Below are positions 2,931 to 38,511 of a DNA stretch of 64,000 nt, piece by piece; position 1 is the stretch's first letter; each line of letters opens with the position of its first letter. The translations under genes were made by a program, and so were the position numbers. The DNA comes from Nitrosopumilus sp. (GTDB lineage Archaea > Thermoproteota > Nitrososphaeria > Nitrososphaerales > Nitrosopumilaceae). The notes beneath the pieces were generated by a model that saw only the letters and a program-made list of their open reading frames with translations, had not been told where the DNA came from and did not search any database. Location of the stretch: positions 160,001 through 224,000 of the forward strand of contig OZ245003.1 of assembly GCA_965223425.1 (NCBI GenBank), read 5' to 3'.

Positions 2931-3836
2931 ATGGTTAGTAAAACAAAAGAATTGTGCCCAAGGTGTGCGCAGGGAAAGTTAGTTACTGACAACGAATCAG
3001 GAGAAATGTTTTGCTCAAAATGTGGATTTGTGATTACTGAAAAATTACAAGAATCTGGTCCAGAATGGAGATCCTTTTCTCAAGATGAACATGGAGATAG
3101 AGCAAGAGCCGGGGCACCTACATCATTAACAATGCATGACATGGGCCTTGCAACAATCATCAACCCTGTAAACAAAGATGCTTCTGGTAGACCGCTCACA
3201 GCAACCATGAAAAGTACAATCGAAAGACTTAGGACTTGGGATAGTAGGAGTCAAGTTCATGAACCAGTAGATCGAAACTTTAGGCAAGCGTTTAGTGAAC
3301 TAAACAGGTTAAAAGACAAACTAGCAATTTCTGATTCAGTGATTGAAAAAGCAGCTTATCTTTACAGAAAAGCACTTGATAAGGGTCTTGTTCGAGGCCG
3401 CTCCATCTCAGCCTTGATGGCGTCTGCACTTTATGCTGCTTGTCGTGATACTGAAACTCCAAGAAACCTAAAAGATGTAGAGCAAGCTGCTAATATCAAA
3501 AGAAAAGATATCGCAAGGTGTTACAGGCTGTTAGTAAAAGAATTAGATCTGAAAATGCCGGTAACTGATTCAATTCAATGTGTTGCAAGAATTGCTAGTA
3601 GAATTGGAATTGCTGAAAAAACAAAAAGATATGCAGTCAAAGTACTAAAACAAGCACAAGAAAATGAAGTCTCTGCAGGAAAAGATCCAATGGGGTTGGC
3701 TGCAGCAGCATTGTATCTGTCTTGTGTACGAAATGGTGAAGATAAAACCCAGCGCGATATTGCTGAGGCTGCAAATGTTACTGAAGTGACTATCAGAAAT
3801 AGATACAAAGGCCTCAAAGACTCGCTGGATCTGTAA
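2931..3836 (+). CDS. tfb: transcription initiation factor IIB (TFB paralogue)
   Basis: Zn ribbon CPRC...CSKCG, GPEWRSF B-reader, two cyclin repeats, TEVTIRNRYK. Confidence 0.97.
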   Translation: MVSKTKELCPRCAQGKLVTDNESGEMFCSKCGFVITEKLQESGPEWRSFSQDEHGDRARAGAPTSLTMHDMGLATIINPVNKDASGRPLTATMKSTIERLRTWDSRSQVHEPVDRNFRQAFSELNRLKDKLAISDSVIEKAAYLYRKALDKGLVRGRSISALMASALYAACRDTETPRNLKDVEQAANIKRKDIARCYRLLVKELDLKMPVTDSIQCVARIASRIGIAEKTKRYAVKVLKQAQENEVSAGKDPMGLAAAALYLSCVRNGEDKTQRDIAEAANVTEVTIRNRYKGLKDSLDL

Positions 3837-7559: not shown

Positions 7560-7599
7560 AACATCTCCAATTCCTACGTTGTATTAAATTCATATGAAT

Positions 7600-8408
7600 T
7601 CATTTTATTGATTCCCCTCCACCCACTGCAAGTATTGCACCAGTAGTCCATATGCGTCATCTGACATAAAATATATTATAGCTTTTGCTATTTCTTCTGG
7701 TTGGCCAATACTGCCTTGGGTGCTCACCACCCATGAATTCTTTGTCTTTTTGAGTTTGTAAAAACGGTTTTGCCATATCTGTATCTGCTACTCCCGGACA
7801 CGCAATTGACTATAATTTTGTCCTTGGCATGTTCAAGTGCCCAACATTGTCAGTATAGCTAAAGCAGCTTTTGAGGCAGTGTATTATCGGCATTAAAATC
7901 TTGATGTGTCTTTAGTCCTGCATCCGACGAAATGTTAATTATCGAACCGCCTGTTTTTTCCAAATGAGGGATTGCTTCCTTGGCAAATCTAAACTGTCCT
8001 GTAAGATTACGTTTAAGACTTGATTCCATCCCAAAATCTGATTTCATGTAATTGTTTGATCTTTGGAAATATGCCGGGCATTATTTACAAGAATATCCAA
8101 TTTACCAAATTTTTCAATTGTTTTGTTTACAACTTTTTTTTAAATTCATTCCTATTTCTAATACCAGCTGCAATACCTACTGCACTAGGAATTTCAACAC
8201 TGATTTCTAATCTTTCTTGATCTCTTGCTGTAATAATTACAGTTGCTCCATTTTCTGATAAACATCTTTGCTGTAGCAAAACCTATTCCACGACTTCCAC
8301 CTGTTACTCAGATGCCTTGTCACACTTTATTGCCAAAGTTCTAGGTAGCAAAACCTATTCCACGACTTCCACCTGTTACTATGGAACTTTCCCAGATAAT
8401 CTCAACAT
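7600..8408 (-). pseudogene. short-chain dehydrogenase/reductase (FabG-like) pseudogene
   Basis: Fragments in several frames: MLRLSGKV, VTGGSRGIGFAT, DILVNNA, GSIINISSDAG, SKAA; multiple frameshifts plus a 72-bp insertion. Confidence 0.88.
8273..8380. repeat. perfect 36-bp direct repeat separated by a 36-bp unique insert
   Basis: GTAGCAAAACCTATTCCACGACTTCCACCTGTTACT at 8273-8308 and 8345-8380; insert CAGATGCCTTGTCACACTTTATTGCCAAAGTTCTAG. Confidence 0.95.
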
Positions 8409-8539
8409 TTTTTACATAAAAATTCGTAATTCATAGATCAATTCTGTCTCATACAGGCATAAAATATTTCATAAAAATCTATAGAAAACTATAATTTATT
8501 ATCTAAAATGTTAAATAGTTAAAGTTACTATATTAATTA

Positions 8540-8669
8540 ATGCCGAAGGATATAATTCCTATCGACTGAAATTGCGTAGCCCCGCAGAACGAGAAAGGCA
8601 ATCAGACGTTATAACGTTCTGACAACGAGAGGAAATCTCTCAAAGTTCTGTAGCAAAGGGGTTTACGCC
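8540..8669 (+). ncRNA. candidate structured non-coding RNA
   Basis: GC-rich intergenic block with nested helices (8574-8583/8658-8668; 8584-8590/8645-8651; hairpins 8602-8622 and 8627-8641); G.U pairs favour + strand; TTAAATA box at 8511-8517. Confidence 0.6.
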
Positions 8670-8670
8670 A

Positions 8671-9099
8671 TCATCTTTCTAAAATATCGACAGATACGGA
8701 TCCCATCACATTTCCGTTTGGATTGATAGTAATTGAAATTTCCTGCATTTCTGAAATCAAAACGGTTTTTTGTCCATCATATTCCCACGTGAAATATTCA
8801 GATGCCCCAGCTTGATGCTTGGTGCCCTCAAGTTTAAAATCTTCAGAAAAATCAAATCTTTCTCCGTTCAGTATTATTGACAATGTGTTTGGGCTACTGC
8901 CATTTGGCACAAATCTAAAATAATATTCTCCTTTGTCCACAGTAAATACATCAGTATATACTCCGTTAACATACAAATCAGGTTCTGCAAGAGTTATGTG
9001 AAATACTACATTGTTCTCTCTCTCTGATGGGTCTGATGAAAAAACTACTAAAATTGCAACTATGCCGATTATTGGAATTAACATAATTTTTTTGTCCAT
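8671..9099 (-). CDS. membrane-anchored hypothetical protein
   Basis: N-terminal TM/signal anchor, 142 aa. Confidence 0.8.
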   Translation of the reverse strand: MDKKIMLIPIIGIVAILVVFSSDPSERENNVVFHITLAEPDLYVNGVYTDVFTVDKGEYYFRFVPNGSSPNTLSIILNGERFDFSEDFKLEGTKHQAGASEYFTWEYDGQKTVLISEMQEISITINPNGNVMGSVSVDILER

Positions 9100-14040: not shown

Positions 14041-14754
14041 TTGAAAGTAAGACTATTTGAGATATTTACATCCGTCGAAGGTGAAGGCATCCTATATGGA
14101 ACAAAGACTCTCTTTGTAAGACTAGCCGGATGTCCCTTCACCTGTTTTTATTGTGACACCAAAGAATCCCTTCCACTTGATTCCGGTACAGAATATTCAA
14201 TTGAAGAAGCAAATCAACTGATTGATTCTAATCTCAAAAACCAAACCTACAAAGTTAATTTTACCGGTGGTGATCCATTAATTCAACACGAAGCCGTAGC
14301 TTTACTTGCCAAGCACATACAAGACAAAAAAATTCCTACATATCTCGAGTCATCATGTTTTGATATTGATAGATTTAATCATGTTTTACCATTTATTGAT
14401 ATTGTAAAGATTGAGTTTAAAACAAAAGACTCTGATTTTGTAGACTCTGAACATTATAAAAAATTAATTGATCATACTATGAAATGTCTTGAATCCTCTG
14501 TAAAGACAGAGAAAACAACTTATATCAAAATTGTAGTTAGCTCAAAAACTCAATTAAACGAATTTAAAAAATTGATAAATCAAATTTTTGACGTTGTTTC
14601 TAAAGATCAAATTGATGGATTTATTATACAACCCACTTATGGCATCTCTGAACCATCATTGGATCTTTTGTTAAGTTTGTATGATATAGTGTATCCGTAT
14701 TATGTTGATGTCAAAGTAGTTCCACAATTACACAAATTCATTGGAGCACCATAA
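14041..14754 (+). CDS. queE: 7-carboxy-7-deazaguanine synthase (radical SAM)
   Basis: EIFTSVEGEG, VRLAGCPFTCFYCDT, TGGDP, PQLHK. Confidence 0.93.
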   Translation: MKVRLFEIFTSVEGEGILYGTKTLFVRLAGCPFTCFYCDTKESLPLDSGTEYSIEEANQLIDSNLKNQTYKVNFTGGDPLIQHEAVALLAKHIQDKKIPTYLESSCFDIDRFNHVLPFIDIVKIEFKTKDSDFVDSEHYKKLIDHTMKCLESSVKTEKTTYIKIVVSSKTQLNEFKKLINQIFDVVSKDQIDGFIIQPTYGISEPSLDLLLSLYDIVYPYYVDVKVVPQLHKFIGAP

Positions 14755-38022: not shown

Positions 38023-38511
38023 TTGGCAAAATTCAAAAAGAAAAAATCTAAACCTACCCCTGAATCAGACGGTTCAAAAACGGAATTGGTAAAAGAAGAA
38101 TCTATTGAGACCCCTGAAACAGAAAAAACTGAACCTGTACCTGAAACGCCCTCCTCTGATCCAGATGTTAGTGAAGCTGATAAAAGTGAAAAAGATAGAA
38201 AGCTAAACAAATTATTTTGGATGCGAGTGAGTTTAGCCATCATAGCTGGTACTGCAGCAACTTTCATCTTTGAAGACATAGAAGGTGAAGATAGAAGATG
38301 GGCATCAATTGGATTTATGATAATAATATTTTTTGGAACAATCATAGTTGCAAAGGGAATGAAAATGCAGTTGCCATCCTCAGATAGAAAGAAACTTGTT
38401 ACACAGGGAATTGGAAGTTATGTCTTTCTGTACCTGTTCATTTGGATTTTAACATATACACTGGTTAATTCAGGAAATGTCTCAACTGGAATACCGACAC
38501 CATTCTCTTAA
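38023..38511 (+). CDS. three-TM membrane protein, EMC6-like
   Basis: Disordered acidic N-terminus; TMs LAIIAGTAA...GIGSYVFLYLFIWILTYTL. Confidence 0.65.
   Translation: MAKFKKKKSKPTPESDGSKTELVKEESIETPETEKTEPVPETPSSDPDVSEADKSEKDRKLNKLFWMRVSLAIIAGTAATFIFEDIEGEDRRWASIGFMIIIFFGTIIVAKGMKMQLPSSDRKKLVTQGIGSYVFLYLFIWILTYTLVNSGNVSTGIPTPFS

Follow-up and report, generated by a model that had tools for sequence, protein, structure and literature searches.

How did a gene of the SDR family in an archaeal chromosome come to carry two identical copies of a short piece of its own coding sequence, set apart by an equally short piece of DNA that breaks its reading frame? The locus lies in a window of 64,000 nucleotides, the whole stretch analysed here, which corresponds to G000:C1:160001-224000 of a 2.64-Mb genome in two contigs. 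Since this genome encodes an archaeal AmoA, the host is an ammonia-oxidising archaeon. A repeat search of the window returned positions 8273-8308 and 8345-8380 as two 36-nt copies, 100% identical and 72 nt apart from start to start, on either side of a spacer-like insert of 36 bp at 8309-8344 (no strand is assigned to any of the three features). The arrangement of a 36-bp repeat, a 36-bp insert and a 36-bp repeat that had been claimed in a preliminary description of this DNA was thus borne out. The bases that flank the two copies are unlike on both sides (T/G before, C/A after), and the repeat is therefore exactly 36 bp long. The minus-strand product of 8273-8308, which is SDR coding DNA, is VTGGSRGIGFAT, and the minus-strand frame through the locus reads IVTGGSRGIGFAT*NFGNKV*QGI*VTGGSRGIGFATAKMF. 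The stretch with the Rossmann motif is present twice in this frame, and the insert contributes three in-frame stops, the first of which is the ACC TAG stop already noticed in the preliminary description. The duplicated 36-mer has no further occurrence in the 2.64-Mb genome, where the runner-up was a match of 16/17 nt, and an exact 36-nt repeat at 72-bp spacing in 2.6 Mb is not a chance match.

The recipient gene (7597..8410, minus strand) is a decayed pseudogene, damaged beyond the 72-bp lesion. It was delimited by three-frame translation, one fragment of which belongs to adh_short (PF00106, E 2.4e-07), and its identity to the orthologue of congener G007, an intact gene for 259 aa, is 85%, with 16 small indels besides the 72-bp insertion. 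A DNA search with the region detected the SDR gene in 22/24 congeners. In at least seven of them the match breaks at query positions 749/786 and the two pieces share 36 nt of subject. In all five congeners that were aligned (5/5) the 36-mer is present as a single copy, exactly 72 bp are absent and there is no insert, so that the empty site sought in the relatives was found. The identity of the SDR region in congeners is 72-90%, and the congener genomes measure 0.7-2.8 Mb. The G+C content is 35% in the window vs 41% for the chromosome, yet the window carries core genes conserved in the genus; the G+C-richer remainder outside the window and C1 at about 130-255 kb, which abounds in IS copies, may be what is unusual about this large genome.

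The probability that the structure is an assembly or sequencing artefact, or a chance repeat, is practically negligible. Nothing specific favours such an origin, the check having been prompted by the constant plus-strand polarity of the junction irregularities described below. Unitigs of runs X1, X3 and X5, which come from three studies and one of which is possibly the assembly's own source, cross both junctions with zero differences (X1 records 2 and 5, X3 records 10 and 11, and X5 record 16, which spans 8273-8374). No junction skipping the 72 bp was seen in the unitigs examined.

In the preliminary description the insert was called foreign. This is not the case, since its sole other copy in the genome, as found by BLAST, lies at G000:C1:1420651-1420686, on the opposite strand and 1.25 Mb away, within an intact ORF of 138 aa of the DUF371 family (PF04027, E 1.2e-46). 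The two copies agree at 34/34 positions exactly and at 35/36 when the match is extended, the mismatch being base 2 of the insert; the insert is a reverse-complement copy of part of a gene of the host itself. The DUF371 orthologues of congeners match it at 84-89%, and no match was obtained in the phage collection and viral contigs. Neither the DR1-insert junction nor the insert-DR2 junction was found elsewhere in the genome.

This origin bears on whether the 36 bp could be the footprint of a mobile element, that is, of an IS, a MITE or a casposon whose insertion duplicated the target and which was later lost or degraded down to 36 bp. The genome is IS-rich (one family alone numbers about 40 copies), an IS terminus makes up the insert at another scar, and the genus has long Cas1 proteins (409-442 aa) that are possibly casposases. 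We nevertheless consider a footprint of this kind highly improbable. The only other copy of the SDR insert is internal to a conserved host ORF and is not an IS end; for this reason the transposon end that had been offered as an alternative fails at the SDR site, where the insert is neither a multicopy IS terminus nor adjacent host DNA. IS or casposon target duplications are typically about 2-15 bp, and a duplication of 36 bp far exceeds these lengths. The Cas1 proteins of the genome itself are one of CRISPR type and a truncated one, with no Cas1 of casposase type. Finally, the inserts of the 29 scars described below are mutually unrelated and come mostly from scattered single-copy genes.

The host encodes the machinery that would be expected to produce repeats and inserts of these lengths. 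Two places in the genome were matched by Pfam Cas1. The cas4 (194 aa), cas2 (97 aa) and cas1 (331 aa; TIGR00287, E 1.2e-61) genes are all intact, and NCBIfam and Pfam scans identified cas7/Csh2, cas5b, cas3 and cas6b, plus a Cas6b fragment, as their neighbours. An ORF of 557 aa in the large-subunit position of the locus has no family match, and the locus is type I-B. The main CRISPR array (C1:1357299-1362540) lies 83 bp from cas4 and consists of 74 identical 36-bp repeats and 73 spacers, which are 34 nt (22 spacers), 35 nt (21), 36 nt (17), 37 nt (11) or 38 nt (2) long. A second, orphan array (C1:1682473-1682944, plus strand) holds seven 36-bp repeats and six spacers of 35-38 nt; its repeat differs in sequence from that of the main array, its last copy matches at 34/36 positions, and its spacers have no match in the host's own genome. 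Apart from these two true arrays, no locus was found to hold three or more repeat-spacer units. The points on which the preliminary description had made its proposal depend therefore came out in its favour: cas1 and cas2 are both present together with an intact cas4, and repeats of 36 bp in both arrays with spacers of 34-38 nt agree with the 36/36 geometry of the SDR site.

Of the second cas1 (I-B, HMARI-like) only 125 aa are left, next to a transposase gene of the ISH3 family, and a cas2 of its own comes after it (L003:15969-18020 = G000:C1:1378368-1380419). Before its breakage, this second module may have been the maker of the scars. One isolated and degenerate main repeat, which keeps 25/36 positions and all of the last 16 bases, was noted at C1:1371047-1371082 (L003 about 8648-8683), just past cas6b and ahead of an IS5-family transposase gene. 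In another genome of the genus, a stretch of 40 nt (G081:C1:1362547-1362586) agrees at 95% with the end of one spacer together with 32 nt of the main repeat; this site lies about 150 kb from that genome's own arrays and may be a solitary repeat or a scar. Arrays with the same repeat occur in congeners G081, G149, G087 and G014, and a search of 81 congeners for Cas1 found none in 49.

The spacers of the working array have few recognisable sources. Native spacer 71 of the main array, third in order from the leader, matches the host itself at window positions 38216-38249 (34/34), in a conserved membrane-protein ORF, and the protospacer has TAT on its 5' side; the orthologous site in congener G103 is 89% identical over 28 nt. 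That a type I-B system which looks complete carries a self-targeting spacer is a hint either of inactive interference or of a flank that does not work as a PAM. The whole main array gave no match to phage and plasmid collections. Among 150 congeners, the short matches to native spacers nearly all contain the repeat, and usable protospacers were obtained only for spacers 71 and 59. The two native protospacers found in all have the 5' flanks TAT and TAA.

Taken together, these observations make it very probable that the 72 bp result from full-site integration of a spacer by the host type I-B Cas1-Cas2 at a non-CRISPR site. The duplication has the repeat length of the host (36 bp) and the insert has its spacer length (36 nt in 17/73 native spacers). 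A prespacer of about 36 bp would have been cut out of the host chromosome, in the DUF371 gene 1.25 Mb off, and its two 3'-OH ends would have attacked opposite strands of the SDR gene 36 bp apart. This stagger would be the integrase's usual measure across a 36-bp CRISPR repeat, and gap filling would have left the 36-bp target duplicated on either side of the insert. The outcome would be an inert repeat-spacer-repeat scar and no working CRISPR unit, as what was duplicated is coding DNA that does not resemble the real repeat; the site indeed lacks the features of a functional array, its repeat being SDR coding DNA and its spacer the only one. We infer both that Cas1-Cas2 was the catalyst and that such units yield no crRNA. 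The fossil ectopic acquisition envisaged in the preliminary description is thus supported by the geometry, the cas genes, the empty sites and the recurrence of the pattern, since the same process would have occurred about 29 times in this genome.

The recurrence was established by two scans. A genome-wide exact scan, limited to isolated direct repeats of 20-60 nt with a gap of 15-80 nt and no other repeat within 300 bp, gave 33 pairs, and in 16/33 the repeat is 32-39 nt and the gap 34-41 nt. A near-exact scan (at least 28/32 matching, isolated loci, tallied by period from 40 to 130) placed 32 of the 73 isolated loci at periods 71-75, and all other periods from 40 to 130 held 0-4 loci each, except for ten tandem 21-mer arrays at period 42. 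From the 35 loci at periods 69-78, four were dropped as tandem or coding (C1:1104350, 1552325, 1721175 and C2:54905), and three copies of one scarred element were counted once, which gave 29 independent scars. The genome therefore contains about 29 independent scars of like geometry with the SDR site included, or about 28 more of the equal-length duplication-insert-duplication scars for which a search had been suggested. The most frequent repeat length is 36 nt (9 scars), and in 26/29 scars the repeat measures 33-39 nt; the insert is 34-40 nt long in 27/29. Repeats are perfect in 20/29 scars and carry 1-4 mismatches in the rest, so that the events differ in age. A second spacer was found in none of them (0/29).

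These lengths also bear on a Cas-independent route, a templated insertion, by break repair or by template switching during replication, in which a broken or stalled end would invade DUF371, copy about 36 nt of it and return 36 nt behind its start. Such an event would account for an insert derived from the host chromosome. It would likewise fit the presence, at one junction, of bases that belong to neither partner, as unmatched junction bases are typical of error-prone end joining. It has no ruler, however, and the narrow ranges of duplication and insert lengths, the concentration of isolated pairs at periods 71-75 and the equality of these lengths with those of the host repeat and spacer are not what it would produce; moreover, junction microhomology was not seen at the SDR site. 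We therefore hold templated insertion to be very improbable and retain integration by Cas1-Cas2 as the explanation of the scars.

Empty sites could be identified within the genome itself for a good part of the scars. Twelve of the 29 lie in elements that occur in several copies, and in the other copies the site is empty and its flanks overlap by the repeat length; 20 empty paralogues were found for C1:105005 and 36 for the scar at C1:2466835-2466946, which sits within a copy of the IS family of about 40 copies. One scarred element is filled at C1:252320, 532092 and 1305101 and empty at 1752856, 1966048 and 2260307, which indicates that the integration is older than part of the spread of the element. 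The empty sites of scars C1:849893, 2401614 and 1714194 were not recovered in five congeners, as the flanks are not conserved and, for 2401614, only the insert was matched. A three-repeat mini-array at C1:1174098-1174340 was rejected as a case of repeated acquisition, for it is a scar within a 168-bp tandem duplication with no second acquisition. A 54-bp unit in nine perfect tandem copies was also noted at C1:1606579-1607064.

Six of the 29 scars fall within 25 kb at C1:1706815-1731016 (L049 and L050, G000:C1:1700001-1736000). This block contains co-directional ORFans, ArdC-N, DUF2958 and a 1292-aa Type ISP restriction-modification enzyme, and is probably an integrated conjugative element. The period is divisible by three in 13/29 scars, and 9 of these 13 keep a long open frame with 24-25 extra codons. 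The number of frames kept suggests selection for tolerable insertions.

A clear chromosomal copy elsewhere (94-100% over 33-38 nt) was found for 15 of the 29 inserts, and weak copies for 2 more; for the other 12 inserts the chromosome holds no copy. The insert of the scar at C1:1924360-1924470 ends exactly at the terminus of the IS family of about 40 copies mentioned above. Two of the sources lie in the window (neither is assigned to a strand). The insert of scar C1:1123482 matches window positions 2956-2991 at 36/36, in a gene that, read from its translation, looks like a TFB-like gene, and the insert of scar C1:1565093 matches 14101-14134 at 33/34, in an ORF whose translation looks like a radical-SAM enzyme. 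The sources of three orphan inserts were searched in 150 congeners, with only marginal matches of 18-25 nt as a result; the same part of the 1714194 insert was matched in this way in four genomes, an agreement that may be either genuine or spurious.

A stretch of 33 kb, at 141.9-174.2 kb, contains four of the 12 single-copy sources (binomial P 1.3e-5, for an interval chosen after seeing the data). This cluster flanks the sole orc1/cdc6 gene (C1:149165-149425, at 149.2 kb) and a GC-skew switch near 150 kb. When the source of the native spacer is included, four scar-insert sources and one native spacer source cluster at C1:141958-198249. Spacer sampling is linked to replication in E. coli, and the position of the cluster at orc1/cdc6 and the skew switch fits this kind of sampling. 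The DUF371 source (1.42 Mb) lies close to the other GC-skew switch, at about 1.47 Mb.

Self DNA is clearly the source in 15/29 scars vs 1/73 spacers of the working array. If the repeats of the scar units are not substrates of Cas6b, as their sequence leads us to expect, the units would make no crRNA, and self-derived spacers in them would not be purged; this would explain the contrast between the two sets. A self spacer does no harm only as long as it is silent.

We looked for what the targets of integration have in common. The preliminary description suggested a resemblance of the duplicated 36-mer to CRISPR repeats, and this impression did not survive the comparison. The SDR 36-mer matches the host CRISPR repeat at 10/36 or 13/36 positions, which is background, as 53% or 17% of all genomic 36-mers match the CRISPR repeat as well or better, and only the leading GT is common. 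Over the 29 scars the targets have a mean of 9.9 matches to the CRISPR repeat vs a background of 9.7, and no similarity of the targets to either CRISPR repeat or to the leader was detected beyond this GT. GT opens the target in 7/29 scars (the SDR site included) vs 1.8 expected, and positions 6-7 are enriched in A. A position-wise analysis of the 29 scars over 64 positions gave p < 0.01 only for G at 4 and at 39, and after correction for the 64 tests none remained significant. Beside the sources of the scar inserts no PAM consensus was found despite the presence of Cas4; YTC occurs on one side in 4/13.

The periods of the scars offer a clue to the module that acted. They are longer than those of the main array, which lies beside the intact cas1 (mean 72.9 vs 71.3; Mann-Whitney p 8e-7) and equal to those of the orphan array (mean 72.9 vs 72.7; p 0.91, n = 6). 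Because they match the orphan array and not the main array, the second module, in which ISH3 now interrupts cas1, may be the one that acted. The junctions show a further regularity. In eight scars with known sources, the SDR site included, 1-5 bases at the DR1-insert junction fit neither the source nor the target. The irregular junction always lies on the same side on the plus strand (8 vs 1), and the other junction is exact. This asymmetry is not predicted by simple integration chemistry. A tie to replication direction or to gene strand was rejected, as there is no flip between replichores and no fit with strand.

Off-target integration is assumed to be a cost that CRISPR adaptation carries unseen, and it has been proposed as a way in which new arrays arise. 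As far as the literature search reached, the evidence otherwise comes from laboratory E. coli, from in vitro work and from a few circumstantial natural cases. We judge it somewhat likelier to be true than false that, as a whole, the scars are a natural and largely unselected record of stray CRISPR adaptation: the integrase would have acted about 29 times as a genome-wide insertional mutagen with mostly self spacers, would have sampled a hotspot at the replication origin and the ends of IS, and would have placed its products in genes, in IS copies and in an integrated conjugative element, many surviving as in-frame insertions of 24-25 codons. If this is true, the scars show what Cas1-Cas2 samples in nature, and they reveal a standing mutational cost of the adaptation module and perhaps a source of protein novelty. 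The mapped scars make it possible to test how prespacers are sampled before selection (self vs foreign, origin-proximal, transposon ends), what a target needs when leader and repeat are missing, how precise the ruler is, and how often genes are broken or remodelled. The pattern of a repeat-length duplication around a spacer-length insert can serve as a general search image, with which any genome of known repeat length can be scanned.

The closest parallel is the off-target 'neo-CRISPR' integration that Nivala, Shipman and Church (2018, Nat Microbiol) are reported to have obtained in E. coli overproducing Cas1-Cas2. The resemblance to the genome studied here lies in a duplication of repeat length around an insert of spacer length, at a chromosomal site outside any CRISPR array; in both cases the integration is ascribed to the host integrase, and the source may be self DNA. 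The E. coli events depended on an overproduced type I-E system in the laboratory, whereas the present ones occurred in a wild archaeon with a type I-B system and a 36/36 geometry, where about 29 scars are fixed, many of them in ORFs or IS copies and none extended beyond one spacer. Off-target integration in E. coli is cited in bioRxiv 10.1101/148544, PMC6698737 and PMC7054753, and for natural cases the first of these refers to 'circumstantial evidence ... in two other species'.

In vitro, purified Cas1-Cas2 of Pyrococcus furiosus used off-target sites with G1, T2 and A6 at a repeat-length spacing and, beyond that, with little identity to the repeat (43% at the best site; PMC6698737). The trend towards GT and A6-7 in the scars resembles this preference for G1/T2/A6 at the border. 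That work used plasmid substrates, purified proteins and a 30-bp spacing, with no gap repair (PMC6698737), whereas the products described here were completed, repaired and inherited, at a spacing of 36 bp.

Type I-B systems have been described in Thaumarchaeota (PMC6563490), and for type I-B acquisition in Haloarcula hispanica ruler motifs are reported (PMC4872114). Leader-proximal acquisition of type I-B also duplicates one repeat length exactly, takes up a spacer of native length and relies on a Cas1-Cas2-Cas4 module. The target in the SDR gene, in contrast, has no leader, no repeat sequence and no mid-repeat motifs, and transcription of the scar unit and its cutting by Cas6b are, on these grounds, unlikely. 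Casposons and IS likewise duplicate their target through staggered cleavage and fill-in (PMC6563490), but the insert here is 36 bp of host DNA with no transposase and no terminal inverted repeats, and its duplication is 36 bp long. In the literature searched, no description of a natural genome with many such scars was found, which is not proof of absence. The SDR scar is very probably a natural instance of known off-target integration; what makes it notable is the scale, the archaeal type I-B host and the preservation of the sources.
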